DNA from: a virus
Taxonomy: Duplodnaviria > Heunggongvirae > Uroviricota > Caudoviricetes
Length of the DNA stretch: 64,000 nt
Reading direction: 5' to 3' (one strand)
Virus record (IMG/VR): IMGVR_UViG_3300042275_000481
Span: 38,172-102,171 of that record
The position numbers and the translations under genes are program-made. Below are positions 10,503 through 62,550 of the stretch, piece by piece (position 1 is the stretch's first letter; every line of letters begins with the position of its first letter). The notes under the pieces are model-generated. The model saw only the letters and a list, made by a program, of their open reading frames with translations. It ran no database searches and was not told the DNA's origin.

Positions 10503-11489
10503 GTGAGAGAGATGACAGAAAAGATTAAAAAAATAAAAGATAGAATTTATGAGTTTGATTTTTCTAATACTGAGTTAGTCGATGGTAGTGAACTTGCCGA
10601 AGTTAATGGTGTTAGCGATTTTGTCATGGCTTTCAGAAGACGTGACTTAGATAAAGGTGTAATTGTTACGCCATCAGGCTATAGGAACGGTCTGGTATAT
10701 AAATCCTCAAATGATGGTGAAATATACAACAATCCTAACTGGATTCCCGATGTTATAAACTTCGCTTTCAATATATTCGGTCTTAAAAAAGGACGTTTCT
10801 ATAAACTAACCGTTATTGGTCGTGATACAGGTTCTAATAATATTATAACAGATGACAGAAGTCTAAGAGTTACAAATGAAGACAAAGAACTATTAATGGA
10901 CTTCGATCTTCATAATGTGGACGAAAATACTGAATACCATGCTATATTTAGAACACTTGATAATGAATCTAACCTTTTCTTCTCAATAGGAAAAATCGTT
11001 GTTAGCAATATTATTATTGAAGAAGTTGAAATCATTGGTGACGATGTACAAGAAACTGAGATTATACCAGAGAATGTATTTGAAAAAGGCAAACTGCAAC
11101 TTGCAGCTTATGGAATCTTTACAACTCAACCAAACACAGATACAGACTATAAAGGAAGATATATCCCAATGCTTCGTTATAGTGGAAAAGGAATAAATCT
11201 ATATTTTGATAAAAATACTAACCAGTATATTCTTGAAAGAGATAACATCGAAGATATACTTGGCGAGGCTTTTACGAATTTAAATTATATTATCGATTTT
11301 AACTTTAATAAAGTCGTTAACAAAGATTTATTCACAGATTATAATATTGTAGATGTCAATACAGACCTCTCGCCTAATACGCTTAAACAAGGTTATCTTG
11401 TATTTGAATTTACAGATGCCGATAACAATTCAGTCCTTTATACTAATAAAGATGGTAGAATGGTTATCCTGATTCATAAATTATACTAA
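10503..11489 (+). CDS. hypothetical protein
   Basis: 328-aa ORF, start overlaps the upstream stop (translationally coupled). Confidence 0.5.
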   Translation: MREMTEKIKKIKDRIYEFDFSNTELVDGSELAEVNGVSDFVMAFRRRDLDKGVIVTPSGYRNGLVYKSSNDGEIYNNPNWIPDVINFAFNIFGLKKGRFYKLTVIGRDTGSNNIITDDRSLRVTNEDKELLMDFDLHNVDENTEYHAIFRTLDNESNLFFSIGKIVVSNIIIEEVEIIGDDVQETEIIPENVFEKGKLQLAAYGIFTTQPNTDTDYKGRYIPMLRYSGKGINLYFDKNTNQYILERDNIEDILGEAFTNLNYIIDFNFNKVVNKDLFTDYNIVDVNTDLSPNTLKQGYLVFEFTDADNNSVLYTNKDGRMVILIHKLY

Positions 11490-20748: not shown

Positions 20749-21765
20749 TTACTTAATACTCTTCTTAACTAAATATTCTGCAGTTCTAATAAGTTGTGCA
20801 GCATAACTCATTTCATTATCATACCAGGAAATGACCTTAACAAGCTGTTTCCCGTCTACTTCAATAAGTTGAGTTAATTGTCCGTCAACTAATGAACCGT
20901 AAGTCATACCGATTGTATCGCTTGAAACGATTGGGTCTTCTGTGTAACCAAGTGTTTCATTTGCAGCAGCTTTCATTGCGTCATTGATTTCTTGAACTGT
21001 AACATTTCTGCTAAGCTCAACTGTCAAGTCTACAACAGAACCTGTTGCTGTTGGTACACGTAAAGCAATACCATCCAATTTACCTTTTAGTTGAGGTAAT
21101 ACAAGTCCAACTGCTGATGCAGCGCCTGTAGATGTTGGAATAATATTTGATGCAGCTGTTCTGCCGCGTCTTGAATTTACACCTTTTGGATGTGGTCGAT
21201 CTAATGTCACTTGGTCATTTGTATAAGAGTGAACTGTTGTCACATAACCTTTAACAATACCAAATGAATCATCTAAAACTTTTGCAACTGGTGCTAAACA
21301 GTTTGTAGTACAAGATGCACCACTAATTACTGTTTCTGAACCATCAAGTGTTTCATGGTTTACACCAAATACGATCGTTTTTAAGTCACCTTTTGCTGGT
21401 GAATTGATAATAACTTTTTTGGCACCTGCTGTGATGTGCGCCATTGATTTTTCTTTTGACGCATAAAAGCCGGTACATTCTAAAACGACATCAACATTTA
21501 ATTCTCCCCAAGGAAGTTGTGATGCATCTTTTTCAGCATAGATTCTAATCTTTCTCCCGTCAACTACTAAGTAGTCTCCCTCAACGGAAATCTTATCCGA
21601 CATATAACGACCTTGTGTGGTGTCATATTTTAATAGGTGTGCTAATTCAGCAGGATTAGATAAATCGTTAATCGCTACCACTTCAAATGTTGGATTGTCA
21701 TGTACAAGTCTGTACGCTAATCTCCCGATACGACCGAAGCCGTTAATTGCAATTTTTGCAGCCAT
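20749..21765 (-). CDS. gap: type I glyceraldehyde-3-phosphate dehydrogenase
   Basis: N-terminal NGFGRIGR Rossmann motif. Active-site [10 protein letters not shown]. Full-length 338 aa with conserved WYDNE near the C-terminus. Confidence 0.9.
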
Positions 21766-24465: not shown

Positions 24466-25938
24466 CGTTTTATTCTATCAAGGTCGTTAATCTTGATACG
24501 TTCTCTTATGAACTGCTTATATTTTCATATAAGACTAGACTATATCACGATCCTTCTAAGGATCCTTTCCATTTCGATTTAAGGGATTTTCACCCACCAC
24601 TTGGCCCTACTCCTGTTGACAAATTTATATTAGCGCTTGTCCTTGGGATAGTCGTTGCACATCTAATTTAATTTTAACTTTTCTTTTAAGGTTTCTTCTA
24701 TTTTTAATTTGATTTTTTTCTTAGAGAGACTAGATACATCAATCCTCAAGAGCTGCTCGCCTGCAAAGTTATTTCTAATATTATCCCTTTGTTTAATAAT
24801 TTCAAGTTCCTTTGCTAGACTATCTCTATTAAATGATTCTTTATGAAATCTTCCATCAATTTCTATAAATTTAATATCATCATGTTCTATTTTAAAATCA
24901 AATTCAAATTTATCATTACCTATTTGTTGATAGTAGTTTTGTTGAAATATTATGTTATTTTTTTCTAAAAATAAACGAGTTATTTTTTCTCCATAAGGTT
25001 CTCTTTCACAGGTACATTGTAAATTTTGGTTTATCATATTTACAGTAGTATACCATTCTCTTGGTTTATCATATTTACAATTAATATGTTTTACCTTTAT
25101 TTTAGAATGAGCATTTTTGTAGTTAGATGAATCTAATAATTCAAAACCTTTCTGTTCTAAGAGTTTTTTAACATCTTCAATAGATCTTGTCCTAGATTTA
25201 ACTCGTTTTTCCTGGCCACAAATAGGACACCCAAAGCCGCGAGTTAAATTATTTGGAGAAACTTTTCACTCATGACCACAAATATTATGTCTATGTAATA
25301 TCTTAGTATCTTTATTAATATATTCTTCTAAAGCAATATATTCATTATTATAAATATCATATAGATTCTTTTTATACTCTTGGTTCGTAAGCTTAAATGT
25401 ACCATTGCAAATAGGACATCCATGTTTACCAGATAAAATAGAATTAGGCGTTGTTTTTCACTCATGACCACAAATATTATGTCTAATAGTGATAGCTGTA
25501 CGAGTTCCTTTATATTCTTCTAATGCAGTATATTCATTCTCATAAATATGATGGAGTTTAAATCTAAAAGCTCTATCGTCAAGTATTCTTCCACTACAAA
25601 TAGGACATCGCTGATTTGATGATAAAAATTTTACCAGTGGCATTTTTCATGTGAAACCACAATCTAGATGCTTAAATTCCATCAGTGATTTATTATTAGT
25701 ATAATCTGATTCATTAGAAATTAAAATATATTTTCCATGCCCTTTTTCAAAAACCTCATTTTTTATATCAACAAATTGTTTTCGTTTCATACAATACACT
25801 CTCCCTCTTATTAAAGAATAATATATTGTTTAGTTAAAATTAAATTATTTTGCTCAGGATTACCATATCTTTTGACTTAGGCTTCCCTGAATTAAAAAAG
25901 TTTTCTTATACTATTGCTAGTATAAGGCGCAATATTTT
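24466..25938 (-). mobile_element. group I intron (RNR intron 2) carrying a heavily decayed homing endonuclease gene
   Basis: Proposed 5' splice site after U of ..gctggcgt. The 3' end ...aataaaacg (omega G) is homologous to the end of the ORF-less Clp intron. R (24645-24660) and S (24548-24556) elements present. The 5' portion (aattcagggaagcc...atcctgagc, 25850-25905) resembles the 5' portion of intron 3. Confidence 0.55.
24663..25790 (-). pseudogene. multiply frameshifted homing endonuclease (zinc-ribbon + Vsr/DUF559-like family)
   Basis: ATG at 25788-25790 with an AGGGAG RBS. Fragments are MKRKQFVDIKNEVFEKGHGKYILISNE..., then ...NQRCPICSGR... (25458-25643), then the nuclease-domain remnant IEIDGRFHKES...LLRIDV (24663-25037). 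All are in different frames. Confidence 0.5.
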
Positions 25939-26798
25939 ACGCCAGCGCTACTTGAATTAGCAACTAATCCAAGTGTTCCTGAAGGTTTAACAGCACTTAC
26001 ATTAAGTGAATGAGATAAACCAAGTTCATCAGCATACTCATCTGCAGACCTTCTAATTACTCCGTAAAGCCAATCCATAAATTTATTTTCTTCTTCAATA
26101 TTCATACCTGTTGCTTCAATCATATCCATCCATGAAGATGGTGAAACACCGAGTAATCTATCTTCTTCTTGTGTTTTGTCCCACTCTTCTAATTCAAGCG
26201 TGTTCATGGTGACACGATAAGCAGAACGAGTTAAAACACGAAGGTCTTTTTCAAGTAAATCATAGTTGATAGTTTTATCTTCATTTAGGTAAAATACAAC
26301 ATTGAATGTAACTAAGTTACATGTCTGTTTTGAGCGTAACAAAATCTCGGCACAAGGATTGAGTCCTCTAGCTTGAGGGTGTCTCTTCTTGATTTCACTT
26401 TCATTCATAAATCCTGGTTCACCGAATGACTTGATATTCTCCATCCAAGCAGTTACTTCTTCCTTAGTTGGTTCATATCCTTCTTCGACAACCATTGTAT
26501 TATTTGAAATCCAATAGTGAGAAATTTTTCTATCACTAAAATCCGTGAAGTTTGTTTTGGCTTTTGCCATTTCATCATCTGTTCTTGAGAATAGTGCAAT
26601 CATAGCACTTCTTCTTACACCACCAACAACAATCGCTTCAGCAATTGAGTTTGCAATGTGCATCATATGAATTGGTCTTAGTTTTCCATCAATTGGCGCT
26701 TTTGTAAGAATGTTTCCGTGACTATCTAAATAATCTCCAGTAACAACTTCATGCATCTTTTTGATAGATTGAATGAATGGTTCGGCACCACTTGCATA
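25939..26798 (-). CDS. nrdJ: class II (NrdJ-like) ribonucleotide reductase, exon 2 of 3
   Basis: Contains GGVRRSA, the active-site loop NPCAEI (N-x-C-x-E) and the KPSGTLGLVANSSSAG motif. The exon ends inside the Val codon ahead of intron 2. Confidence 0.7.
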
Positions 26799-27987
26799 CA
26801 TATGTTAGCTCATAGTTTCTTATGAGATCAGACTATATCTTCAACCCTAGAACTATCTAGGATTGCCTCGCACTTCGAACTATAAGTTCTACTCTACTCA
26901 CTTCTTTACTTAGATTATGTTCTAAGCTATGTTTTCGATAGTCGTTGCACGTTCAAATATATCATCTAGAATTTCATGTATCTGACTAATTTGATTATAT
27001 CTTATTCTTATTAAATTGATATTATTTTCTTTTGCTATTTCATTTTTTCTGAAGTCATTTTCTTTCAAAATTTTGAATGATTCTTCCCCACCCCAATTAT
27101 CTTGAGGTATAAAATGTTGTATTCCGTCAAACTCAACTATTAAATTTTTTTCTTTAATCCAAAAATCCAATCTTAAATTTCCAAATAATTTATGCGTTTT
27201 ATTATATTTATATTTAATATTTTTAGAATTCAAATAATCTATAATAATTCGTTCACCATTTGAAGCTTGACAAAATGGACATCTTTGACCTTGTTGAAAG
27301 TCATTAGGTCTCATAACAAAAGTATTTTTGCATTTTTTATGATAATGTTTTATTTTTGTATATGAATTAATATATTCCTCATTTACAGTATATTGATTAG
27401 AACCTAATTTCTTAACTAAATTTTTATACTGTTGATGTGTTTTTCTAATTCCGCCATTGCAAACCGGGCATCTTCTTCCAGCTGAGATGAATTTATTGGC
27501 TGTTGCATAGTAATCATTTCCACATTTTTTATGTGTAAATTTCAACTTACTGTGATTATTCTCATAATTACCTTCAACTATATACTCATCTTGTACTAGA
27601 TCATATATTTGTTTTTGTATATCTTCTAGTGTGAATGCATGAAATTTTTTTCTTTTTTCATTAGCACATAACGGACAACGTCTTCCTTGTTTGAATTTAT
27701 CAGGTGTTACTGAATAAATATTACCGCAAGCAAGATGTTCTACTTTTAATTTAGTTTTCGAAGTAGTATAAGTTTCTAACCATTTATACTCATTCGCATC
27801 ATCAAATTTTTTATTAATATCATTTAAGAATTTTTTATGTTTAGTCATTTTAATACAGTCCCTTCTATAATAATATATAAGCTTCGCTCAGGATTGTCTC
27901 CATCATTACATGGTAAGAGTTTCCCTGAATTCACGAGGTTGCTATAATATATTGTTATATTAAGGTGGCTATGCTTTTGGGGCGTTA
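26799..27987 (-). mobile_element. group I intron (RNR intron 1) carrying an intact homing endonuclease gene
   Basis: Exon 1 ends ...TFGG with U before the in-intron TAA. The intron ends in G just before tat-gca-agt (YASGAEP). R (26927-26940) and S (26830-26838) elements present. Confidence 0.6.
26922..27848 (-). CDS. intron-encoded homing endonuclease: four tandem zinc-ribbon (CxxC...CPxC) modules plus a C-terminal Vsr/DUF559-like PD-(D/E)xK nuclease domain
   Basis: Repeats of H..CGN.Y...P..F..G.RCP.C. C-terminal IVEFDGIQHF...D...K...INLIRIRY. The 3' end reads through the R element of the intron core. Confidence 0.6.
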   Translation of the reverse strand: MTKHKKFLNDINKKFDDANEYKWLETYTTSKTKLKVEHLACGNIYSVTPDKFKQGRRCPLCANEKRKKFHAFTLEDIQKQIYDLVQDEYIVEGNYENNHSKLKFTHKKCGNDYYATANKFISAGRRCPVCNGGIRKTHQQYKNLVKKLGSNQYTVNEEYINSYTKIKHYHKKCKNTFVMRPNDFQQGQRCPFCQASNGERIIIDYLNSKNIKYKYNKTHKLFGNLRLDFWIKEKNLIVEFDGIQHFIPQDNWGGEESFKILKENDFRKNEIAKENNINLIRIRYNQISQIHEILDDIFERATTIENIA

Positions 27988-28986
27988 ACCACCGAAGGTT
28001 TTGAGTGGCTCTCCAGCTGGTCGGATGTTATTAAACACCATTCTAATATTCTTATAATCATGGTCAATTTCATAACTCATGTATTTTAAGAATTCAGTTA
28101 CAGCTTTACCCCAACCATCTCTGCTGTCTCCAACAATAATTGAAATAGTTCCATCAAGTTTTAGAACCTGAGTTTTGTCTTTTCTCATTGTCTTTGGAAG
28201 TGGGTTGTAAGGCACAACTTGTAATTTTACATCGCTTCTAAATCTTGGAAGTTTTTCTGCAACATCCCAAGTAATTCTGTATCCAACTCCAGCACCAACA
28301 GATAATAGATATAAAATATCATAGAATGAGTCTAATGTGTCTGGTTCAATAAATGAGCAGTTGAATAAACTTAAAGGATAACGTTCTGCAGCACTTGATC
28401 CACCTGTGAACATTGCACGTCCACTAAGGAAAGCTCTAAGATTAAACTGCATGTCAAATAATTGCTCAGCTTCTCTTTTAAGAAACTGCATAACTTTTTC
28501 TTCACGTTCACGAGTATCCATATTGATATTATGGTCTGTGGCACGTAAAATTGTTTCTTTAAATGTTTCTCGTCTACCTAATTCAACTACATCTCGACTA
28601 TATGTTCTCAAATAAGTAAATTTACTTACAGGGCCCATATGTTTTGGGTAGCTGTCATAGTTCACAAGGAAACTCGGTGCTAAGTACTCAGAGCTATAAA
28701 CAACATCTTTCAACGATTCTCTTCGTTTCGCTCTTGCATTTCTTCTTAATATATAATGCTCAACAGCTTCAGGATATTCCCTGATTGCATGTTGCACTTT
28801 GTTTTGAATCTCTTCTATTCCAATACCATCATAAACAACTACAGATTTAGCCATCTCTTGAATCTTTGAGTATAGTTCCTCTGCTCTTTCTTCTCCATAA
28901 GTCTCTCTGAACGCTTTGTAGATTGCCTGTTCGATTTTGGAGACATCGAATTTTTGCAATTCACCAGTTCTTTTACGAATATACAT
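27988..28986 (-). CDS. nrdJ: class II (NrdJ-like) ribonucleotide reductase, exon 1 of 3 (ATP-cone N-terminus)
   Basis: N-terminal ATP-cone (RKRTGELQKFDVSKIEQAI). Exon ends ...KTFGG. Confidence 0.7.
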
Positions 28987-29273
28987 GACCCATCATCCTT
29001 TCCCTCAATTTCACAAAAAACGGGATATAAGGCTAATATGCTTAAGTGTATAACAACCTTATTTCTTCTAGACATGAAGTATAATTTTTTAGTAAGAAAT
29101 TTTTATTGTTATTCATAAACATATCATCTTTTGTTTTTCAGAAATTGGACAGTAACCACTGTCAGAAGTATTTCTTAATTTATTGTTGTTAGGATTTTTC
29201 GTTTTTAAATTATATACTTTTTGTAAAAAATTTAATCAAAAAAAGAAGGATTCGAAAATCCTTCTTATATTAG

Positions 29274-30719
29274 TTATTCTACCCAGAATCTGGCAAATCC
29301 CTCAAGACCGCCAAGATCTAAATCAATATATACAGACTCATAGTTCTTAGTTTTGAGTTCTGCTTTAGCAATTTTAGGATTATTATTGAAGTCAATATGC
29401 TCAAAATATTTTTGAATTGCATCCAATGTTCTTACTGGAAGCTCATCTGAAAGTCGAACATAGAAGTCAAAGAATTCTTTGTCTTCATCTAAATCGCAAT
29501 GCATTTTGAATAGATTTGCTTCTTTACTGTTATTGCATTTGATTCTTCCAACTCTTATAAAGTCACTGTTAAAAACAGATGGAGTTGGTGAAGCAAAGAT
29601 TTCGCCAAAATCATGTGCTGATAGAAGCGGTTCTTTATCTTCATACAATAACAAATCCAAACTTCCTCTAACTCTGTCCACATCTAGTGGATGAGTAAGT
29701 TCTAGTGAAATATTGCCTTTGTCATCTTTTACTTCTCGATACATATCAGTATCAAGGACTTTGTTAATAGCGTCTCCACTTTCGATATTGAATGTATTTC
29801 CATATTCTGGAACTATGAAATCAAATACTTCTTCAGAGCTCTTAATCGCTGCAACAACGAAGTCTTCAATAGATTCGTCATTTGATTGAGCCAAGAATAG
29901 AATATATTTTTCATTATTGCCTATATATGTTAATGTATCCATAGTAGAAAATGCTGGTATCAAGTTGTAACCTTTGGTTGCAACAAAAGTTTGAAGATTG
30001 TATGGGCCTTCACCATAGATATCTTTGAATTCATCGTAAAGATGTTCACTAGGGATATAAACAATTGCGCCAAATGATTCGTTATCAGCAATGATATCAA
30101 AATCATAAGATGTCATTTGTTCTTCTCCATCATCAAAGAGTTCATCTTCTTCACCGCTAGCTATACCTAATAGTTTTTCCACATCCTCGTCAGATGCAGC
30201 TCCACCAGAAAGTAAGTTAATCAGTTTATTTACAAAATCTGTGGTTTCTTCCATTTCGTCATCAGGAATTCCTAAATCTTCTTGCATCTTCTCTAATAGT
30301 TCATCCATGTTACCAAAAGGGTTTTTACCAGCGTTAGGTGACATCTTTGACATATCAGGAGTATGATTACCTCCTAGAAATTTATCAAGAACCATTTTCA
30401 AACCAATGTTATCCAAAGAGAAGTGTTTTTCATTACCATTCCCAGAAGTCATCATATGTCCTGAGAGCTCTTCTAGAAAGTCAGGATCAGAATTGCTATT
30501 TAGCATTTGAGCGAATTTTTCCATTGCACTTTCTAATTCACTTTCTGTTACTCCAAACATTTCTGTTATTTCAGATGCAGCATCTCCAAAGGGTTTACCT
30601 CTGCCTGGATGATTATTTCTTTTAGGTTGAACATCTTCTTCGATGTCAATATTTTCTTCCATTCCAGAAATAGAGAAGTTTGTTTCTTTATCTTTGTCGT
30701 TATCATCAAAGAAATTCAT
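29274..30719 (-). CDS. large acidic hypothetical protein
   Basis: 481-aa D/E-rich ORF downstream of clpP on the same strand. It ends at a hairpin terminator (aaaaagaaggattcgaaaatccttctt, 29240-29270). Confidence 0.45.
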   Translation of the reverse strand: MNFFDDNDKDKETNFSISGMEENIDIEEDVQPKRNNHPGRGKPFGDAASEITEMFGVTESELESAMEKFAQMLNSNSDPDFLEELSGHMMTSGNGNEKHFSLDNIGLKMVLDKFLGGNHTPDMSKMSPNAGKNPFGNMDELLEKMQEDLGIPDDEMEETTDFVNKLINLLSGGAASDEDVEKLLGIASGEEDELFDDGEEQMTSYDFDIIADNESFGAIVYIPSEHLYDEFKDIYGEGPYNLQTFVATKGYNLIPAFSTMDTLTYIGNNEKYILFLAQSNDESIEDFVVAAIKSSEEVFDFIVPEYGNTFNIESGDAINKVLDTDMYREVKDDKGNISLELTHPLDVDRVRGSLDLLLYEDKEPLLSAHDFGEIFASPTPSVFNSDFIRVGRIKCNNSKEANLFKMHCDLDEDKEFFDFYVRLSDELPVRTLDAIQKYFEHIDFNNNPKIAKAELKTKNYESVYIDLDLGGLEGFARFWVE

Positions 30720-30772
30720 ATATTTTCCTCCTTTTGGAAAAGAGGGGGAAAGATTATTCCCCCAATTTTATT

Positions 30773-31369
30773 TTATTTATCAGATGGTTTCTTGATTTCG
30801 TCAATAATTCCATATTTTAATGCATCTTCTGCAAACATCCAACTGTCACGTTGTGTATCTTTTTTAAGTTGAGTAACTGTCTTGTTACATGATTTTGCAA
30901 TCATCTTAAGCAATTTCTCATTTAATTGTTTTGTAAAGTCAAGAGAAACTTCCATATCTTGGATATTTCCTTGAGTTCCACTAGATACTTGATGAAGCAT
31001 TACAGTTGCATTTGGTAGCGCAAAACGCTTGTCACCTTGAGACAGAATAGCTGCGCCCATAGATGCAGCAAGACCTTTAACACAAGTATAAACTGGTGCT
31101 TCAATATCTTTCATAACATCAATAATAGCCAATCCGTCAAGAACGGATCCTCCCGGACTGTTGATGTATAATTGAATAGGTTGTTTGCTAATTTTATTCA
31201 AATGTAACAATGTTTGTGTAATATAGCTAGCTTGTCTTTCATCAACAACACCTTCTAAATGGACAACACGGTCGTCAATTTGTGCACGTTGAATATCATA
31301 TTTAGGTTCTGAGTAATAAGTCCCTGAACTAGTCATAGGCTTATTAATATTTTTCGGATCAAAATTCAT
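30773..31369 (-). CDS. clpP: ClpP-family serine protease (S14; ClpP/NfeD-like)
   Basis: YINSPGGSV, Ser nucleophile in GLAASMGA, His in MLHQVSSG. 198 aa. Confidence 0.8.
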   Translation of the reverse strand: MNFDPKNINKPMTSSGTYYSEPKYDIQRAQIDDRVVHLEGVVDERQASYITQTLLHLNKISKQPIQLYINSPGGSVLDGLAIIDVMKDIEAPVYTCVKGLAASMGAAILSQGDKRFALPNATVMLHQVSSGTQGNIQDMEVSLDFTKQLNEKLLKMIAKSCNKTVTQLKKDTQRDSWMFAEDALKYGIIDEIKKPSDK

Positions 31370-31433
31370 ATTTTCCTCCTTGATTTTTAGAATTGAGGGG
31401 AAGATTTCTCTTCCCCAATTTAATATTTTTTAT

Positions 31434-32543
31434 TTATGGATTTATAATAATTCCGGATCCATCAGTAATAACTTGTGGCAACTCACCATTCCATGTATTT
31501 AAATACTCGATATATTGAATATAATCAAAGATTACCTTTAATTCTTCTGGAGTACTTCCTGAAGTATCAACTGTATATGTTGTAACCTCTGTAACTGGAT
31601 CTGTGGTCGATGTAACTGGCATACCTAATGTTCTGGCAACATCAACGACCTTAGCTGACAATGCAGCTGCTTCAGCCTGAGCGATTGCAAGAATAGCGTT
31701 TGCTTCACCTTTAGCTTCTTCTAGAGCCGATTCTGCTTCAAGAATAGTTGTTGCTAATTGTTGTTCAGCCTGAATGATGGCAATTTGTTTTTCAGTTTCA
31801 GCTTTTAATCTTTGTTGATCTGCAATCATCTTAGCTTCAACAGCTGCTTCAAAAGCATCTGAAAATGCAAAATCTGTAAGATAAATCGCAACAATTTCAA
31901 CAGGCATTCCTCTACCATTAATTTCCTCAACAATTAAGGTTTCTATAGAAACAGATAATGCGGATCTTTGTGAAATTAAATCCTCAGCGGTATATTGTGA
32001 TAAAGACGATTTAGTTCTTTCCATAACAAGCGAACCTAATCTATCTCTAACATTTTGAACATCTCCACCATATTTTTCATAGATTGTTTGAGCTTGTTCT
32101 CTCTTAATTCTCCACTGAACTGTAAGCATTGCGTCTACAGGCTGGGAATCGTTAGAATAGAATGATATTCCCATATCTTCAAGATTGTCATATCTGATTT
32201 CTTGAACTTTTAATGTATATTTGTGATATTTTTCTAATGGGCTTTTAACCTTTAAACCAGGTTCATATACAACTCCTTGAATATCTCCTAATTGAGTAAC
32301 AACCACTACTTCGGTTGCATCAATAGTTTGAAACATTCCAAATAATACAATTAATGCGCCAAGTGGAGCAAGTAACACAAGTTTACGGAATTTCCATCCG
32401 AACTTATATTGTTCTTCTGTATATTTTTCAACAGTTCCATCATATTTTACTTTTTGTTTCTCAACAATATATGAATGTTCTCCTAGGCCAAGACCAATGA
32501 ATAAACCAATAACTAAAATAAATGCAAAAATAATTAAAAACAT
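31434..32543 (-). CDS. SPFH/band-7 (stomatin/prohibitin/HflKC-like) membrane protein
   Basis: N-terminal TM helix. SPFH core domain. Long Ala/Glu/Gln coiled-coil (AEQQLATTILEAESALEEAKGEANAILAIAQAEAAAL). Confidence 0.75.
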   Translation of the reverse strand: MFLIIFAFILVIGLFIGLGLGEHSYIVEKQKVKYDGTVEKYTEEQYKFGWKFRKLVLLAPLGALIVLFGMFQTIDATEVVVVTQLGDIQGVVYEPGLKVKSPLEKYHKYTLKVQEIRYDNLEDMGISFYSNDSQPVDAMLTVQWRIKREQAQTIYEKYGGDVQNVRDRLGSLVMERTKSSLSQYTAEDLISQRSALSVSIETLIVEEINGRGMPVEIVAIYLTDFAFSDAFEAAVEAKMIADQQRLKAETEKQIAIIQAEQQLATTILEAESALEEAKGEANAILAIAQAEAAALSAKVVDVARTLGMPVTSTTDPVTEVTTYTVDTSGSTPEELKVIFDYIQYIEYLNTWNGELPQVITDGSGIIINP

Positions 32544-32612
32544 AATTTGTACCTCCCAATTTTCTTAAAATTTTTTACTCAAAGTTTAAAAGAAGGGAAT
32601 CCGAAGATTCCC

Positions 32613-33216
32613 TTATACTGATACTACTTCTTTTTCTTTTTGCTTGGACTCGATACGATCAATAGCCACAAGCATTTGTTTTCTTACAGCGCGCTTCAAT
32701 CCACGTGCACCATAAGTTTCGATATCAGCTGTCTTAATGATATCATCGATATCAGATTTAATGAATTTAACATCTTTTTCCATTTCCATGTACTCTTGAT
32801 ATTCTTTCTTGTATCTGTCGATTAGTGTTTCAGCGATATCTTTTTCAAGACCGTTGAACACAATGATTTCATCTAAACGGTTGATGAATTCTGGACGGAA
32901 ATGCTTTTCAACATTTTCTCTAATTTCGCTTGACTCAGTTTTATGAGTTACGAATCCAGAACTTCTAGGTTTAGCAAAGTCTTTACCATAACCTAAGTTC
33001 GTTGTGAAAATAATAATCGCATTTCTAAATGAAACACGATTTTTATGGTTATCAGTCATTTCACCTGTATCTAAGATATTCAATAATGTATCGAATACTT
33101 TTGGATGAGCTTTTTCAATTTCATCAAATAGAACGACTGAGTTTGGATACTGTTTGATTTTTGCAACTAAACCTGATTCATCATCATGGCCTATATCTTT
33201 TGTGTTACGATAGTTC
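32613..33216 (-). CDS. ClpC/ClpA-like double-AAA+ ATPase, exon 3 of 3
   Basis: GHDDESGLVAKIKQYPNSVVLFDEIEKAHPKVFDTLLNILDTGEMTD (D2 Walker B/sensor), RPEFINRLDEIIVF (sensor 2), GARGLKRAV. The 5' boundary is uncertain (33191-33216). Confidence 0.65.
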
Positions 33217-33491
33217 GCTAAACTATCTCTTTATATTTCTATAAAGAACTGACTATATCTTCACCCGATAAACGGGGTACTGCATTTCGAGTTCGCTTGA
33301 ACCCTACTCCCATAAGGGATAGTCGATGAACCTTCATCTCATTGAGATGTTTGGCTGCGGATTGCCCAATCTCTTGCCTTTTTACCATCTCTCCGACGTT
33401 ACTCTTCGATTAACAGGTAGCTAAGAGCTCTAAGGGGTTTCCCGCAATTAACAGTATTTTCTTTTGTATATCACTATACAATGGGGCGTAT
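33217..33491 (-). mobile_element. ORF-less group I intron (Clp intron B)
   Basis: R (revcomp of gggatagtcgatgaacc, 33316-33332) and S (33251-33259) elements. Conserved gcggattgcccaatct and gctctaaggggtttcccgcaatta blocks. Proposed 5' splice site after U of tgg-att. The 3' splice site is ambiguous: ..tagcg or ..gatata. Confidence 0.5.
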
Positions 33492-33628
33492 AATCCACCC
33501 AGGGGCACTACCAGTAATTTTTGTTACATCCATTTCAGTACCATATTCACCCATATTTAATTTGATTAAGTTTCGTTCAGCACCACAGAATTGCTTTGCA
33601 ACAATTTTACAAGTTTCGGTTTTACCGA
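33492..33628 (-). CDS. ClpC/ClpA-like ATPase, exon 2 of 3 (46-aa micro-exon)
   Basis: Encodes VGKTETCKIVAKQFCGAERNLIKLNMGEYGTEMDVTKITGSAPGWI. This is the remainder of the D2 Walker A (GPTG|VGKTE) through the ...G-A-P-P-G-Y-like motif. Confidence 0.6.
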
Positions 33629-33938
33629 CCGTTTATATTCCATCGAAATCGTTAATTTCAATGCGTTCTCTTATGAACTGCTTATACTTTCATATAAGAC
33701 TAGACTATATCATCACCTTTTTCAGGTGGTTTACATTTCGACTCACTTGAGTCTACTCCTTACGGATAGTCGTTGAACTTTTCTCTTATTAAGAGACTTA
33801 GCTGCTGATTGCCCAATCTACACACTTTTCAAGCCTTGGCTTTTCCTCACGGATCGCAGTGGCAGTGTAGCTCTAAGGGGTTTCCAGCAATTAGTAAACT
33901 TTGCTTATGTAAATTTCTTTACATAGGGGCTAAATTTA
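33629..33938 (-). mobile_element. ORF-less group I intron (Clp intron A)
   Basis: Exon 1 ends GPTG (ggt, U) followed immediately by TAA. The intron ends ..ataaacg (G) before gtcggtaaaacc. R (33754-33768) and S (33693-33701) elements, plus the gctgctgattgcccaatct and gctctaaggggtttccagcaatt blocks. Confidence 0.65.
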
Positions 33939-35408
33939 ACCCGTAGGACCTGCAAATACCATTGATGTCAATGGTTTCTCTGGATCGACTAATCCTCTTT
34001 CAATGTATCTTAGGTTCTCAATAACACGGTTCAATGGTCTTTCTTGACCTAATAGAACACGTTTCAACTCTTTTGCAGTTGCTTCTGTTTTGTTGTCAGC
34101 AATATTGATATCATATTTGACTTTAATCGCTGTGCGAACATCATCTGTGAAAACAATTTCACCGTCTTCATTGAAAACAGTTGAACTGGCAAATGCAAGT
34201 TCCAACATATTAATTGCTTTTGCTGGATTTGCTTGGTCAAGGGTGTATTTTTCAGAATAGTCTAAGACTTTTCTTACTAAATCGTCCTCAGCCTTCTTAC
34301 CAAAATATTCTTCGATATCAGGTTGTACACCTTTAAGAATTTGATAAGTTTGTTGTTTTGTAGGCTCACTAATGTTTACCTTATGGAAACGTCTTTCTAA
34401 TGCTTTGTCTTTGCTGATGTGTTTTTGATATTCATCATCAGTTGTAGTCCAAATCATTTGAATTTCACCACGAGTGATATATGGTTTAAGAATATTACCA
34501 CCACTTGCAGCTCCTTCTGCGTCTCCTAATTTCACCATCATATGTGCTTCATCAATGAACAGAATTACTTCTGGATTTTCTTTGACAAGTTTAATGATGT
34601 TCATAAGTTTTTCTTCAAAATCACCACGATATCTAGTTCCAGCAACTAATGCACCTGGATCTAATTGGTATACAATTTTGTTTCTGAACTTTTTAATAAC
34701 ATTTTTATTATTAATACGATTTACGAATTCATATACTGCAACAGTCTTACCTGTACCAGCAGGTCCAACGAGAATCGCATTTCTAATTGATTTTCCTGAC
34801 AAAGCCATTTGAATTTGATTAACAGCATTGTCTGCACCGATTACAACTGGTTTCGCTTGTTTCACATATCTGTTAAGATTTGTTAACTCACGGATTTTTT
34901 CCAATGCATCGATTTCTTGTTTAGTTGCAACAATATTAAATGCTTCAACAATTTTCTCAGACATTTGGTCAACTTTTTGAGTTGAACCGCCGAGAACAAA
35001 TTCAAGAATACTTCTAAGTTTATAACTTGGGTCTGAAAATAACACTTTAATAAGGTCTTCAACTTGCATTTGTCTGCGTTGTGCAAGAGCATCTCTTTTA
35101 AGTTGATTTCTTACAGCATTACCTTCTTCATGCCAAGTAACTTCAAAACGTTCTCCGCCTACATCCAATCCAGGATATAGTTCCAAGAATACCTTTTCAA
35201 AATCTTCTCCCTTAACTTCGTATTCTTGTAAGATATTCGTTAGAGTTTCATACGTCTCAGCAAATCTTTCAGTATCTTTATTCTTCTTCAAGAAGATTGT
35301 TGTACCTAAGAATAGATGAGGTGTACCAACCCAATTTTGATAGTTCTTAATTGCAATTTGTCCCGCTTTTTGCGAAATCATTTCGACTTCTTGTGATAGT
35401 GCCTTCAT
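33939..35408 (-). CDS. ClpC/ClpA-like ATPase, exon 1 of 3 (Clp-N repeat, D1 AAA+, start of D2)
   Basis: D1 Walker A GPAGTGKT. Walker B ILFIDEAH. ALERRF. Ends at ...MVFAGPTG (first half of the D2 P-loop). Confidence 0.75.
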
Positions 35409-35420
35409 TCTTTTCCTCCT

Positions 35421-35849
35421 TTAGAATCCAAAATCATCATCATCATCGTCTTCATGAGGATTGACTTGAACGGTATTTTGTTTGTTTTCATATTCTTTAA
35501 GATCTGTAAATGACATTTCCTTAACAGTTGCCATAATTTCATCGATTTTGTCGAGAATTTGTTCATCTGTAAGTGCTTCTGGTCTTTCACCAGTCATTTG
35601 TTCCATTATATCTGCAAAATCTGGATCTGATAAAGCTTCTAGATCCGTCATCGCACCAACATATCGTGATATTACCATAAAGTTAGCTCTGAAGTCAGCG
35701 CTTTCTTTATACTCAATATTTCTTTTTGCTTCTTTTACAGTAGCTTCTATTTTTTCAATAACTTCTAATTTTGCTTTCTCAACGGGTCCAAGACTCGCTT
35801 CTTCTTCTAGACCATCATCATCTAAGAAGAAATCATCAAAATCAGCCAT
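35421..35849 (-). CDS. acidic protein (poly-Asp C-terminus)
   Basis: 142-aa ORF ending HEDDDDDDFGF. Lies between the VWA gene and the Clp ATPase gene. Confidence 0.45.
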   Translation of the reverse strand: MADFDDFFLDDDGLEEEASLGPVEKAKLEVIEKIEATVKEAKRNIEYKESADFRANFMVISRYVGAMTDLEALSDPDFADIMEQMTGERPEALTDEQILDKIDEIMATVKEMSFTDLKEYENKQNTVQVNPHEDDDDDDFGF

Positions 35850-35907
35850 ATTAGTTCCTCCCTGTTTCTATAATTTTGTTGGGAACATAGAAAAATAAAG
35901 ACGGATC

Positions 35908-37383
35908 CTAGAAGAATCCGTCTTGTTGTTTTTTCATTTTAACCCAATCAGCGTCTTTTTTCAACGCTTTAACTTCACCATATGGTTCTTTCAGTGATAA
36001 ATGTTTTTCATCTGCAAGAACGATCCAAAGATTTCTTAGTGTTCTTGGTTTTGGAATTTCAGAATCACCAAAGCCATCAGTAAAGTATACCATTAGCGCA
36101 TTTTTATATGCACCAGTTTCATTGATATGATTGATTACAGGAATGAAAGAAGTTCCTCCACGACCTGTAACTTTTGTATTTACATCACGAGGATATTTTG
36201 CATCATAAATTCTTCCAATTTCAGCATCACATTCGATGATAGTAACTTTTGTATCATAATCTTTAACGATATTGAAAATTTCGTTGATTACATACTCAAT
36301 ATCACTATTTGACATAGAACCTGATGTGTCAATTGCAACAACAAGTTGTATATGTCTCTTTGGAAGTTTACCAGATAAGTCAGCACGATATGGTTGACGT
36401 CTGTTTAGACGTGTTTTAGTTCTTCTGTATGGAACAGGAACTGTACCCATATACTTTTTAAGAATCTGTTTCCAACTAATTTCTGGTTTTCTAAGAAGAT
36501 GTTTAATCTGTTCGATTACACCTGCAGGCATAAGTCCACGAGATTTTTCATCCATCTTATTATAAACATCTGCAATTAAACCTTTAACTCTGTCTTTCGC
36601 ATCTTCACTATCAACTTTTTCCCATTGATGTGGTGCTTGACCATTTTGATTATTTTGAGTTGCAGGTGCATTAGGATCTGGTTCACCTTCTCCTTGACCT
36701 TGTCCTGGCATAGCAAACTTGCTAGGTTTACTTTTCTTATTACTATCACCATCTTGTGGCTTAGGACCAAAGTTCTTCAAGAACTTATAATAATAGTCAA
36801 TCGAACTGTTTTCTTTCGGTGTTCTATTACTTTCTTGATTCATTTTTGCGGTTGTGTAAGCGTCAGGTGGAAGACGTAATGTCTTCGATCTGTCGTTTTT
36901 ATCTAATCTTATATCTTGTTGAACCATTGATGAAACAGATGCACTTGAAGCTTTTTCAAGGTTCACATGTTGTTCTGGATCATTTGCACCATTTAACTCA
37001 CCAAATACTGATGGATGATTATAAACTAATCTCAAAATCTCAGAAATAACCAATGCTGTAAATTCAGCATATGGATATTTAGCTAAGAATAATGGATTGA
37101 AATGCAATTCAAGTGGTTCTTTACTTACATCAATATCAAGTGGGCCTCGAATATTGAAGTTAACTTTTGTTGTCATGTTAACTAGAACTGAGCCCCAGAA
37201 AACATCGTGTGCCATGATTAAGTGAATTTTTTCAAATTCAATTACTTGCTCAAAAGCCTCTCTAAGAGGAGGGAGGATCTTTTCATCGACCTTCCCTTCA
37301 TTTATCAAAGCAGAAGCCTCAGCTTGATCTACAAGTTCACGGCAGATATTATATACTTCTAAAATATTAGTCTTTCCTGCCAT
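35908..37383 (-). CDS. von Willebrand factor A (VWA) domain protein, partner of the MoxR ATPase (DUF2201/ViaA/CoxE-like)
   Basis: MIDAS motif in VVAIDTSGSMSNSD. Further VWA elements (TDG..D). Long N-terminal region with a Gln/Pro/Gly-rich linker. Immediately downstream of, and tightly spaced (10 bp) with, the MoxR gene. Confidence 0.7.
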   Translation of the reverse strand: MAGKTNILEVYNICRELVDQAEASALINEGKVDEKILPPLREAFEQVIEFEKIHLIMAHDVFWGSVLVNMTTKVNFNIRGPLDIDVSKEPLELHFNPLFLAKYPYAEFTALVISEILRLVYNHPSVFGELNGANDPEQHVNLEKASSASVSSMVQQDIRLDKNDRSKTLRLPPDAYTTAKMNQESNRTPKENSSIDYYYKFLKNFGPKPQDGDSNKKSKPSKFAMPGQGQGEGEPDPNAPATQNNQNGQAPHQWEKVDSEDAKDRVKGLIADVYNKMDEKSRGLMPAGVIEQIKHLLRKPEISWKQILKKYMGTVPVPYRRTKTRLNRRQPYRADLSGKLPKRHIQLVVAIDTSGSMSNSDIEYVINEIFNIVKDYDTKVTIIECDAEIGRIYDAKYPRDVNTKVTGRGGTSFIPVINHINETGAYKNALMVYFTDGFGDSEIPKPRTLRNLWIVLADEKHLSLKEPYGEVKALKKDADWVKMKKQQDGFF

Positions 37384-37393
37384 AATGGCCTCC

Positions 37394-38851
37394 TTATTCT
37401 TCTTTCATTAAGTTTTTAAGCGTACTGTCGAATTCAGAAAGTTGCAATAAGACCTCACGTGCAAAGCATTTAGAAATCTTAGAGAATACATTCTTTCCAT
37501 CTTTTGCAATAACTTTCTCTACATTTGAAAGACCTTTTGCGAAGGTGATTCTTGTAGAATCGTCAAGCATTTGAACGAATTCTGTGATTTGATCCTTATA
37601 GTTATTGTATTCTTTTGCAATCTTCAAATCAGATGATTTTTTCTTATTTTCAAAGTCAACAATTGTTTCAGCGATGTAGTAAATAACTGTGTCAGCAGTA
37701 ATCTTTCTACGAAGTGCACCTTGTTTGTTGAATTTAACTTTAAGTTCATTACTGATTGTTGCGGTTTTACCATTGATAAGTTCTTCTGGTTTAATAAGTG
37801 TGCTTGTATCTTTTAAGTTACGGATAAATGCACGACCTGCTGTTTGACCAACTTTACCAATGATCATTCTTTGCATATCGCCATCTTCGTCTGATCTATC
37901 TTGACGACTTAGAAGAGGGGTTTTAGCAAATACTTGGAAACTTTCATAAATATATGCAACAATTTCCCAAGAACGTGGTGATGGATGTTGCTCATCAGTA
38001 TCCTTATGAGAGTTGTCTTTTGTCATAAATTGACTTTCATCAACAGCAATTGCGTTGATAACGTCTGTATTAATTCCTTTATCAAGAGCATAATCTACCC
38101 AGTCGCTTAACTTAGCATCAACAACGATTTTAAGGAAGCGGTCTTTTTGAGCGTCATCCATTTCGTTAGTTGCATAAGTTGAGTTTTGAGATGATGGATT
38201 GACTGCGCCTACAATCGTAACCCACCAAGGTAAGTCATAACCATTGATATTTTTGTTAAGAACGATGTTCATTAATTCTTTCATTGTTTGTGGTTCTGTA
38301 CGGTTAAGCTCATCAATAAATAGTAAGAAAGGTTTAATTTCTCCACTTTCGATTAATGCAATTTTAAGTTCTGCTGGTAATTCTTCACCGAATTTAAATT
38401 CGTTGATTTCTCCATCAACAAGACGTTCCATTTGAGAACGTGTTGCTAATACTTTTGCTTTCTTAGTTTTAGGGTCTGTATAAACCATACCTTCATCAGT
38501 AAGTTTAAGAGCTCCACCTAAGAAACCTTCTTCTTTTGCAATTCTGTAATATTCTTTTTCAAGTTTCATAATATTACTTGTTACATAATAAGGAACGAAA
38601 CGAACTTCTGTTCCTCCATCTTTAGTTGGGCTTGCAAATGGTAAACCAGTTACTTCCCCTTCTTTTAGAGATCCACCTTCAACTACGTTACTGAACCCTC
38701 CAAGTTCTTTTGCAGCTTGGTGAATAATTTCTGTTTTACCGATACCATGAGGACCTGATAAAAGCATTGTAATACCTTTACCTCTTGGTGTAATAAGATT
38801 TGCTAAATATGCGCGCTTAACTAAGCGCTTTGACACTTCAATTGTTGCCAT
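37394..38851 (-). CDS. MoxR-family AAA+ ATPase (AAA_5)
   Basis: Walker A LSGPHGIGKTE. Walker B LLFIDELNR. Sensor-1/Arg-finger region TIVGAVNPSSQNSTYATNEMDDAQKDRF matches the MoxR ..ATQNP...LP.A.LDRF signature. Confidence 0.75.
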   Translation of the reverse strand: MATIEVSKRLVKRAYLANLITPRGKGITMLLSGPHGIGKTEIIHQAAKELGGFSNVVEGGSLKEGEVTGLPFASPTKDGGTEVRFVPYYVTSNIMKLEKEYYRIAKEEGFLGGALKLTDEGMVYTDPKTKKAKVLATRSQMERLVDGEINEFKFGEELPAELKIALIESGEIKPFLLFIDELNRTEPQTMKELMNIVLNKNINGYDLPWWVTIVGAVNPSSQNSTYATNEMDDAQKDRFLKIVVDAKLSDWVDYALDKGINTDVINAIAVDESQFMTKDNSHKDTDEQHPSPRSWEIVAYIYESFQVFAKTPLLSRQDRSDEDGDMQRMIIGKVGQTAGRAFIRNLKDTSTLIKPEELINGKTATISNELKVKFNKQGALRRKITADTVIYYIAETIVDFENKKKSSDLKIAKEYNNYKDQITEFVQMLDDSTRITFAKGLSNVEKVIAKDGKNVFSKISKCFAREVLLQLSEFDSTLKNLMKEE

Positions 38852-38948
38852 AATTTTGTTTCCTCCCTGTTATTTGTTTTGTCGAGTTATAATTTTCCAG
38901 TAACTCGCATTTATAATATATAGTTTAAAACTTATTTAAAAATACAAC

Positions 38949-39599
38949 TTAGTTTTCACTAAGTTGTATGTTTTCATAATCTAGCTCCTCATGGAAGATA
39001 ACTTTCTTCGATTGAGGTTGTTGATTTTTTATCATTTCAATTATTTCTAAGAATTTGTCAAAATTATTATCGTACATTTTAAGATAATTAAAGTTTGACT
39101 TCTTAACTGCTTCATCTTGTGCTCGTTCATCATCAATATCTCTTAGTCTGTAATGTGTATTGTCAGATGCTTTAATGTTCACGATAAGATTAAGGCTTGT
39201 AATATAAAAATCTGGAATGTGAAATCTTTGATTACCTTCTGCATCTATATACGGAAAAGTCATTGGAGCTGGCCCCATAACATCACCTGGGTTGTCCCAA
39301 TCAAGATAAACATCGAGATATTCTAAAAATTTTCTTTCATAACTTCCAGTATATGGAGTTGTAGTTCCATCTTCCCATTTGTATTCTCCAGATATGCTTC
39401 TATTTGAAAGCATTTTCTTTTGTTGTTCTGGTTCATCAAGTAAATGGACTTTTCCATATTTTTGTTTCATTCTTCTCTTAAACATTTCACGATATGCTTC
39501 TCTTGCTCGTTCATCAGCAAAGCGTTCATATCGGCCAGTTGTAACGTTAAACTTAGTTGGCTTGCCAGTCATAACACACTTTCCATGCTCTTTTGTCAA
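38949..39599 (-). CDS. hypothetical protein (TTG start), separated by a single in-frame TGA from the upstream zinc-finger ORF
   Basis: 216-aa ORF. The same frame as 39615-39746 continues through one TGA (...IVFN*RNKYALTKEHGKC...). Confidence 0.4.
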   Translation of the reverse strand: MTKEHGKCVMTGKPTKFNVTTGRYERFADERAREAYREMFKRRMKQKYGKVHLLDEPEQQKKMLSNRSISGEYKWEDGTTTPYTGSYERKFLEYLDVYLDWDNPGDVMGPAPMTFPYIDAEGNQRFHIPDFYITSLNLIVNIKASDNTHYRLRDIDDERAQDEAVKKSNFNYLKMYDNNFDKFLEIIEMIKNQQPQSKKVIFHEELDYENIQLSEN

Positions 39600-62218: not shown

Positions 62219-62455
62219 TGCGTTCTCTTATGAACTGCTCATACTTTCATATGAGATGAGACTATATCTTCATCTTTCGATGTTTCCTGTTTCGGACCAC
62301 TTGGTCCTACTCCTTACGGATAGTCGTTGAACCTTCATCTCATTGAGATGTTTGGCTGCGGATTGCCCAATCTACACACTTTTCAAGCCTTGGCTTTTCC
62401 TCACGGATCGCAGTGGCAGTGTAGCTCTAAGGGGTTTCCCGCAATTAAGGAAATT
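62219..62455 (-). mobile_element. ORF-less group I intron (unknown-gene intron 2); boundaries approximate
   Basis: R (62318-62333) and S (62249-62257) elements, plus the gctgcggattgcccaatct and gctctaaggggtttcccgcaatt blocks. Nearly identical to Clp intron A. Confidence 0.55.
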
Positions 62456-62461
62456 TTATAA

Positions 62462-62550
62462 GAGCATAACTGTTTACCCTTAATATCAAGAACTGGTTTG
62501 TCTAATAGACGCCCAAGTTCACCTGTAATTAAACCGGCATACATAATTTT
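62462..62550 (-). CDS. internal micro-exon of the unknown intron-interrupted gene (approx. boundaries)
   Basis: Only one frame is open between the two introns: KIMYAGLITGELGRLLDKPVLDIKGKQ... It begins right after an intron-terminal G (..gagtttaattg|aaaatt). Confidence 0.4.

Follow-up and report, generated by a model that had tools for sequence, protein, structure and literature searches.

An SPFH scaffold gene is held between ClpC and ClpP genes in an uncultured clade of large phages

SPFH scaffolds regulate AAA+ proteases in bacteria and mitochondria, and both the mechanism and the reason for the gene linkage are debated. We examined a stretch of 64,000 nucleotides from a virus of the Caudoviricetes (IMG/VR record IMGVR_UViG_3300042275_000481, positions 38,172 to 102,171; hereafter the window), in which a gene for an SPFH protein is found directly upstream of a gene for the protease ClpP. 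The linkage of these two genes is real and conserved, and SPFH, enclosed by a ClpC/ClpP pair, belongs to a conserved phage proteostasis cassette and is not beside capsid genes. The pairing of SPFH with a protease in a phage is apparently undescribed so far, as no description of a phage SPFH-Clp or SPFH-FtsH pairing was found in the literature searched. A functional tie of SPFH to proteolysis is plausible. We tentatively lean toward a link at the level of the pathway, without going so far as to call it probable: a host-matched, prohibitin-like scaffold may be kept together with phage AAA+ protease genes, so that the two would jointly reprogram host proteolysis. That SPFH simply cages the Clp machine is improbable. 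The three central genes are the following.

31434..32543, minus strand: gene, including the stop codon, for an SPFH/Band-7 protein of the prohibitin/HflKC type, 369 residues (Pfam, PDB profile search, AlphaFold2 (AF2) model, Foldseek)
30773..31369, minus strand: ClpP, a canonical ClpP-family serine protease of 198 residues (Pfam PF00574, matches to ClpP structures in PDB)
32613..35408, minus strand: gene for a ClpC-type double-AAA+ unfoldase, in three exons (Rfam, exon mapping, PDB)

The whole surrounding gene block is likewise encoded on the minus strand of the window. An earlier note on this DNA had placed SPFH directly upstream of ClpP, 64 bp apart, and the coordinates, the families and the spacing (exactly 64 bp) were all confirmed. 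We found the same adjacency in six out of six diverged lineages of the phage clade, each with one SPFH gene per locus (related loci and contigs compared are labelled with L-numbers). SPFH lies downstream of ClpC in all six and is immediately adjacent to it in five. Besides the window, four lineages were reached via SPFH homologues (L008-13, L113/114, L115/116 and L117/118), and all of them share the full block order, which runs from MoxR through VWA, a 142-residue acidic protein, ClpC, SPFH, ClpP and a 480-residue protein to ribonucleotide reductase (RNR). The sixth and more distant lineage, L286, was reached via the neighbouring protein of ~480 residues, i.e. independently of SPFH. Its order is ClpC, GAPDH, SPFH, ClpP, and the SPFH-ClpP adjacency thus survives the insertion of GAPDH. 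The inserted gene (7353-8360 of L286), between ClpC and SPFH, ends 13 nt before the SPFH start. Among the lineages, identity is 58-91% for backbone proteins and only 30-64% for SPFH. The earlier note had named a tie of ClpP to capsid maturation as the finding that would speak against the linkage with SPFH; no capsid or scaffold genes flank ClpP in any of the six lineages and the linkage was not refuted. ClpP is always accompanied by a ClpC-type ATPase, among genes for RNR, MoxR/VWA and thioredoxin.

The family assignment of SPFH is supported by matches to Pfam Band_7 (PF01145, E=1.8e-26, 93.7 bits against a cutoff of 23.6) and to phrog_200 (E=4.9e-42). The predicted protein falls into two parts.

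32322..32540, minus strand: predicted N-terminal membrane hairpin, with a first transmembrane helix (TM1, residues 2-20), a loop (21-55) and a second helix (TM2, 56-74) (hydropathy, segment identities)
31437..32321, minus strand: predicted ectodomain with SPFH fold (residues ~75-227), long helix and C-terminal cap (AF2, segment identities)

The earlier note had described a TM helix followed by a long Ala/Glu coiled-coil. The coiled-coil is borne out by the AF2 model (mean pLDDT 79.7), in which an unbroken helix of 77 residues (229-305, Ala+Glu 43%) follows helices at 2-19 and 54-69 and the SPFH fold at 71-227, and precedes a hairpin and helix at 310-350. The number of TM helices had to be revised to two, residues 2-20 and 56-74 forming hydrophobic helices with Kyte-Doolittle values of 3.0 and 2.2, and the 35-residue loop between them is basic, with 8 K/R. 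The C-terminal beta-hairpin and helix bears the family motif YIEYLxTW[DN]GxLP. A family profile search of PDB gave prohibitin 1/2 (6e-22) and HflK/C (1e-14) as the nearest solved relatives, followed by QmcA (1.2e-6) and stomatin (~1e-5), with QmcA, stomatin and erlin spanning 1e-6 to 1e-4. Foldseek on the model returned the same order, topped by prohibitin and HflK/C cages at 1e-12, and the whole range for prohibitin, HflK/C, stomatin, erlin and QmcA cages was 1e-12 to 1e-9. NCBIfam scores were far under the cutoffs (hflC 42.9 vs 134.4, hflK 36.3 vs 159.4). Prohibitin and HflK/C are the two SPFH families that regulate AAA+ proteases. The model thus shows the architecture of a cage-type scaffold of the prohibitin/HflKC kind.

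On the basis of the positive-inside rule, it is fairly likely that the SPFH, coiled-coil and C-terminal parts are outside the membrane and the loop is cytoplasmic, as in HflK/C and prohibitin. Among 25 family members, the inter-TM loops hold 144 K+R vs 88 D+E, and the 15 residues after TM2 hold 29 K+R vs 52 D+E. The N-tail before TM1 counts 0-4 residues in all but one of the 25, and the length of the loop predicted to be cytoplasmic ranges from 10 to 58 residues across the family. No TM segment was detected by Kyte-Doolittle hydropathy in ClpP or in any other block protein besides SPFH.

ClpP of the window matches Pfam CLP_protease PF00574 with E=8e-51 (172.9 bits), and solved Bacillota ClpPs align with it end to end (E=1e-38). 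Its triad, Ser103/His126/Asp175 in the motifs AASMG, MLHQ and RDSWM, matches that of the solved ClpPs in the alignment. It is a divergent member of the family (NCBIfam equivalog score 147.8 vs cutoff 308.6). The OB domain of NfeD is absent, and the match to NfeD1b_N (25 bits) is below the Pfam cutoff of 40. The unfoldase gene is interrupted twice.

33939-35408, minus strand: ClpC exon 1
~33498-33629, minus strand: ClpC exon 2
32613-~33196, minus strand: ClpC exon 3
~33630-33938 and ~33197-33497, minus strand: group I introns of ClpC (Rfam Intron_gpI, 98.5 and 85.4 bits)

Exon junctions were mapped on an unsplit orthologue of 733 residues, whose best PDB match is ClpC (S. aureus, B. subtilis and M. 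tuberculosis, 6e-100). The first intron cuts the D2 Walker A motif between GPTG and VGKT. ClpC is unsplit in L008, L113, L117 and L286, and split in the same region in L115/116. The window ClpC carries a putative docking loop, KPRSSGFV, at the canonical ClpP-docking site; compared with the pattern [LIV]-G-[FL], the variants are SGF (window and L113), IGF (L286) and QGV (L008 and L117), and the corresponding stretch of S. aureus ClpC reads AGF. With an intact triad in ClpP and a putative ClpP-docking loop in ClpC, the two look like a working soluble ATP-dependent protease.

The comparison of SPFH segments revealed two distinct affinities. In the order TM1, loop, TM2, SPFH fold, long helix and C-terminal part, the window protein is 86, 64, 81, 26, 38 and 31% identical to that of L116, its nearest backbone relative, and 33, 21, 52, 78, 88 and 71% identical to that of L127, a chromosomal gene of a Bacilli metagenome-assembled genome (MAG). 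A sliding identity profile puts the break point right after TM2, with residues 1-75 being 64-86% identical and residues 76-369 only 26-38%. As whole proteins, the window and L116 share 91% identity in MoxR, 88% in ClpC and 41% in SPFH, and the SPFH ectodomain is only 25-38% identical to those of the nearest phage relatives. L127 is located on a genuine Bacilli chromosome, judging from its context (PNP, M16 peptidases, SSB, aminotransferase, LtaS-like sulfatase and CCA-adding enzyme). These identities indicate that SPFH is a chimera, in which a hairpin of the phage lineage is joined after TM2 to a Bacilli-type ectodomain, and that the ectodomain was recently copied from a Bacilli host gene, the L127-type chromosomal family being the likely donor type. 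Across Clostridia and Bacilli, members of the SPFH family are widespread on chromosomes as stand-alone genes: many Clostridia genes are 35-41% and one Bacilli MAG gene is 69% identical to the window SPFH, and the TM hairpin and loop of the bacterial homologues differ from those of the window (21-52% identity).

Throughout at least two ectodomain replacements, the position of SPFH has been kept. Movement of SPFH and ClpP as a single tract was ruled out, as the replaced tract is limited to SPFH residues ~76-369; in the sliding identity profile ClpP is backbone-like save for one variable patch. Two ClpP allele types occur within the clade. The window ClpP (30773-31369) is 61% identical to that of the distant L286 (9425-9997) and only 55-61% identical to the ClpP of much closer backbones, and the patch, residues ~120-165, is 20-30% identical to the other allele type.

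A second association between SPFH and an AAA+ protease was found outside the clade. The closest SPFH homologues there (64-80% identical) belong to a second phage group (L007, L120 and L126), in which SPFH follows the gene for a 711-residue FtsH-like protein, either directly or after a gene for a 172-residue zinc-ribbon protein whose start codon overlaps the stop codon of the FtsH-like gene. These FtsH-linked SPFH alleles resemble L127, their outer part being 77-92% identical to that of the window while hairpin identity is low. The FtsH-like protein has AAA and M41 domains and the HEAGH motif. Since hydrophobic segments are absent and the FtsH profile is matched from position 155 of 598 onward only, the protein is without the membrane and periplasmic module. 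No FtsH was found in the window. Among 24 L007 genes besides SPFH, a single weak match was found in the window, to guanylate kinase. Both groups have in common a gene order (RNaseH, small gene, guanylate kinase) and, besides, a divergent DNA polymerase, and for this reason they may be very distant relatives. Relative to the RNaseH-guanylate kinase anchor, SPFH is located on opposite sides in the two groups, with an AAA+ protease as its neighbour in both. In L007, the N-terminal TM helix of SPFH is a separate open reading frame (ORF) of 30 residues ending in a stop (9884-9976; the rest at 10001-11056), which a frameshift, a mistake in assembly or truncation of the gene could explain.

We also looked at the spacers for signs of joint transcription.

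31397..31416, minus strand: GC-rich hairpin in the SPFH-ClpP spacer, GGGGAAGA-GAAA-TCTTCCCC, followed by a GGAGG Shine-Dalgarno sequence (fold -15.4 kcal/mol)
32593..32614, minus strand: terminator-like hairpin directly after the ClpC stop codon, followed by CTTTT (spacer fold -15.8 kcal/mol)

The window SPFH-ClpP hairpin has no U-tract and the spacer is too short for a promoter. Since these 64 bp hold only the hairpin and the Shine-Dalgarno sequence, transcription of ClpP probably starts upstream and reads through the spacer, and co-transcription of SPFH and ClpP is likely. Nearly every gene in positions 29000-39200 of the window has a GC-rich hairpin after it, together with a strong Shine-Dalgarno sequence, and terminator-like sites are far in excess (26 observed vs 4.6 expected). 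Instead of terminating transcription, the hairpins may stabilise the RNA or serve in its processing. Their stems often read GGGGA/TCCCC and precede a GGAGG ribosome-binding site. Sigma-70-like sites are at chance level (39 vs 40.1), and the promoter and terminator scans were uninformative on operon structure.

Among the closest known systems are HflK/HflC-FtsH of E. coli and prohibitin-m-AAA of mitochondria, with SPFH proteins of the same subfamily by sequence and fold. The phage protein shares with them the N-terminal anchor, SPFH domain, long coiled-coil helix and C-terminal cap, the predicted position of the large domain on the trans side of the membrane and the genetic association with an AAA+ protease (ClpC/ClpP, or the FtsH-like protein in L007, L120 and L126). 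In contrast to both systems, the phage has a single SPFH gene and not an HflK/HflC or PHB1/PHB2 pair, and its SPFH has two TM helices instead of one. Unlike FtsH, the phage proteases are soluble, and the FtsH-like protein lacks the TM and periplasmic module that occupies the HflKC cage. The HflKC-FtsH analogy of the earlier note was therefore upheld for the SPFH subfamily and its likely orientation and not for the soluble partners, which have no reach into the outer cage. Its second analogy, to stomatin-NfeD, failed: ClpP has neither a TM segment nor an OB domain, its NfeD1b_N match does not reach the cutoff and SPFH is not stomatin-type. The likeness to stomatin/QmcA-NfeD systems (P. horikoshii PH1511-PH1510, E. 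coli QmcA-YbbJ) is that the SPFH gene adjoins the gene for a ClpP-fold protease, which in PH1510/1511 cleaves the SPFH protein (PMC13086221). The phage protease, however, has the Ser-His-Asp triad and the ATPase partner of a true ClpP, is not membrane-bound and ends without an OB domain. Similarly, phage SPFH is only remotely similar to stomatin and QmcA (1e-6 to 1e-5) and is probably oriented opposite to QmcA.

The literature has recorded SPFH genes in phages since 2006, describing them as orphans or morons of unknown function (PMC1524935, PMC10269572). Those of cultured phages (44RR, Aeh1, RB43, CSP3, FP_Toutatis, AD45-P1 and CBB) encode Band_7 proteins, are found in early or accessory regions and are 26-32% identical to the window protein over the SPFH domain. 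They differ in having no chimeric host-type ectodomain and, in the 4/4 inspected, no protease neighbour. Jumbo phages are known to encode Clp ATPase, ClpP and FtsH-like genes (PMC6892783). For example, RaK2, 121Q/PBECO4 and PA5oct/MIJ3 have their own Clp ATPase, ClpP (~42% identical to that of the window) and FtsH-like genes, yet these are dispersed, and the SPFH genes of RaK2/CBB-like phages are not adjacent to Clp genes.

Membrane-protein quality control in cells is the task of SPFH-regulated FtsH-type proteases. In the pathway-level reading, the large domain of phage SPFH would be on the outer face of the host membrane, where its host-like SPFH domain would join or imitate host SPFH assemblies and alter membrane-protein quality control during infection, probably on or within the host SPFH/FtsH-type system. 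The soluble AAA+ protease of the phage (ClpCP, or the TM-less FtsH in the other group) would cover the cytoplasmic side. The genes would stay together for one task, the takeover of host proteolysis; a single cage complex would not be needed and any physical contact between SPFH and protease would be made via the short cytoplasmic loop. Such a shared task would explain the kept gene neighbourhood without the need for a common complex.

Several points weigh against this reading. Host FtsH as the target is pure inference, and the topology of SPFH is a prediction from the positive-inside rule and homology. In several lineages (L008, L118) the SPFH-ClpP hairpin has a U-tract and could terminate transcription. 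Moreover, SPFH clearly works without a linked protease, because most phage and bacterial SPFH loci have no protease neighbour: neither Clp nor FtsH was found in the flanks of ~30 other phage or metagenome SPFH loci, next to SPFH in the four cultured phages inspected or in the flanks of 79/80 bacterial SPFH loci. Bacterial SPFH neighbours are heterogeneous housekeeping genes, with no ClpP, ClpC, FtsH or NfeD partner. A third phage group (L119) carries a host-type SPFH (70% identity) with no AAA+ protease nearby. From the opposite direction, 77/77 other viral contigs with a Clp-type ATPase were without ClpP and SPFH within 8 kb, and PA5oct-like phages, in which FtsH and ClpA are ~18 kb apart, gave no SPFH match. 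A general SPFH-Clp rule was rejected on these grounds (0/77 viral Clp-ATPase loci and SPFH-free PA5oct-type phages). The echo of cellular SPFH-protease operons proposed in the earlier note is real, seen in the linkage conserved in six lineages and in the FtsH-linked group, while most other SPFH loci are unlinked.

Three other explanations and one combination were considered. SPFH may be an incidental neighbour of the Clp genes, which we regard as possible though rather unlikely: a host-derived accessory protein with a Clp-independent role, such as membrane stabilisation in a long jumbo-phage infection, lysis timing or superinfection exclusion, whose gene would have come to its location by ancestry and by recombination within a hot-spot region. 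SPFH genes are common among phages, mostly with no protease beside them, the same allele, close to the host gene, was acquired by three phage groups, mobile DNA is abundant (two ClpC introns, an endonuclease in RNR and the GAPDH insertion in L286), every gene has its own hairpin and Shine-Dalgarno sequence, and six lineages of one clade count as a single ancestral event. An incidental location is harder to reconcile with a position held through the ectodomain replacements and an adjacent insertion, with a second, separately located AAA+ protease pairing in another phage group and with nearest solved relatives that are protease-regulating SPFH families; a rough estimate, not computed, puts chance adjacency to the sole AAA+ protease gene of a ~300-gene genome at ~1% per event. 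In another reading, ClpP would be a prohead protease acting in capsid maturation, in a neighbourhood unrelated to regulated proteolysis. Its best PHROG labels do read 'head maturation protease' (phrog_94, 2.7e-47), and many phage ClpP-fold proteins have that role, but we consider this very improbable here, as ClpP scores higher on NCBIfam ClpP models (171.7 bits) than on Clp_rel_HeadMat (105.6, under its cutoff of 120), stands alone at 198 residues with no scaffold or capsid fusion, has no capsid or scaffold genes near it in any lineage and is in the constant company of a ClpC-type ATPase with a putative docking loop, among RNR, thioredoxin and MoxR genes.

Physical tethering, in which an SPFH oligomer would anchor or enclose ClpCP (or the TM-less FtsH-like protein) at the membrane and restrict its substrates, is unlikely in our assessment. 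It is in line with the immediate SPFH-ClpP adjacency in 6/6 lineages, with the independent adjacency to an FtsH-like protease that lost its membrane anchor and with SPFH being the sole block protein with TM segments. The hairpin and loop follow the phage backbone while the ectodomain is swapped, as expected if the cytoplasmic part contacts phage partners, and the loop is conserved among Clp-linked lineages (35 residues, KFGWKFRK) and of another type in FtsH-linked proteins (52-58 residues). Loop type is, however, confounded with phylogeny, the loop is equally variable in bacterial homologues, and this short basic stretch, all that there is of a cytoplasmic part, shrinks to 14 residues in L286, which keeps SPFH-ClpP. 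The cage-forming domain is predicted outside the membrane, ClpC, ClpP and the FtsH-like protein have no TM segment or ectodomain with which to reach it, and ClpP is without the OB domain by which NfeD binds SPFH in known systems. The membrane-tethered Clp machine of the earlier note is therefore unproven and topologically doubtful, with the SPFH domain predicted outside and only a loop of 10-58 residues in the cytoplasm. Less likely again is a combination in which the chimeric SPFH plugs into the host microdomain and its phage loop recruits the soluble AAA+ protease (ClpC-ClpP or TM-less FtsH). If true, a membrane-localised protease would be built from soluble parts and aimed at host membrane proteins or scaffold clients, and the repeated swapping of the outer domain alone would amount to host matching.

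What is new is a phage SPFH gene tied to the phage's own AAA+ protease genes in two separate arrangements, with partner proteases that have no membrane anchor and an SPFH that is a domain chimera, its outer part repeatedly renewed from the host. The result is a compact natural system of four or five genes in which one can ask if direct caging is required for SPFH-protease coupling, and what advantage a virus draws from importing such coupling. The proteostasis island may also bear on how jumbo phages remodel the host proteome.

The remaining proteins of the block are as follows.

37394-38851, minus strand: MoxR-like AAA_3 ATPase (phrog_1297 ATPase, 3.3e-45)
35908-37383, minus strand: DUF2201 VWA-like protein (Pfam DUF2201, 2.5e-15)
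35421..35849, minus strand: conserved acidic protein of 142 residues upstream of ClpC (present in all lineages, 41-71% identity)
29274..30719, minus strand: conserved acidic protein of 481 residues directly downstream of ClpP, clade-specific (homologue searches, AF2)

MoxR and VWA form a chaperone-type pair that heads the block and is conserved in all lineages; the VWA protein of L286 also matches DUF2201_N, a putative metallopeptidase domain. The 142-residue acidic protein has no family match. Similarly, the 481-residue protein has no match in Pfam, PHROG, NCBIfam or PADLOC and no TM or NfeD match, its AF2 model (pLDDT 71.5) gave no Foldseek match at E<=0.001, and its homologues number only 10 among 5.8 billion proteins. 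No NfeD-like or membrane partner was found among the neighbours of SPFH in the block. PADLOC gave no defence-system match for SPFH, ClpP, MoxR or VWA, and only the AAA+ ATPase was matched among the block proteins.

The gene content of the window is that of a large phage, with RNA polymerase subunit genes, a divergent family B polymerase, a virion protein, three group I introns (Rfam) and homing endonucleases. A DNA similarity search of 50,697 deposited phage genomes gave only trivial matches and no near relative, and an identical phage is present in several JGI metagenomes. GGAGG ribosome-binding sites, the best ClpP and ClpC matches and the SPFH donor all point to a Bacillota host. The whole proteostasis island (MoxR, VWA, ClpC and ClpP) is thus carried by an uncultured group of large phages of Bacillota. 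In a scan of IMG/VR for SPFH, a single-protein query gave nothing and an alignment-based query gave matches.

Several minor observations concern the surroundings of these loci. The flanks of L008, L113, L286 and L007 hold an unusually rich set of host-like genes, including those for a ribosome hibernation factor (S30AE), thioredoxins, ribosomal protein S21, HPr, ThiF and a DHH phosphoesterase. In L119 (3588-5961), a gene for a Peptidase_S77 prohead protease lies two genes upstream of SPFH, and RNA polymerase beta genes lie downstream of it. A short metagenome contig, L052 (18-1762), carries a ClpC-like C-terminus with docking loop FGF, an 88-residue ORF and a 290-residue SPFH of the WDGKLP family. 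The window has a GAPDH gene of its own at 20749-21765 on the minus strand (Gp_dh_N/C, E=4e-59). The RNR large subunit is found in two ORFs (27985-28986 and 25917-26801, minus strand; span 25917-28986), between which lies a 308-residue CapR/DUF4379/DUF559 endonuclease-like ORF (26922-27848), and relatives carry LAGLIDADG or other endonucleases at the same gene. The third group I intron (62238-62540, minus strand) lies inside the divergent family B DNA polymerase gene, whose C-terminal piece is at 61559-62218, and it is accompanied by a paralogous endonuclease-like ORF (62626-63621) and an HNH endonuclease (60408-61496, minus strand).

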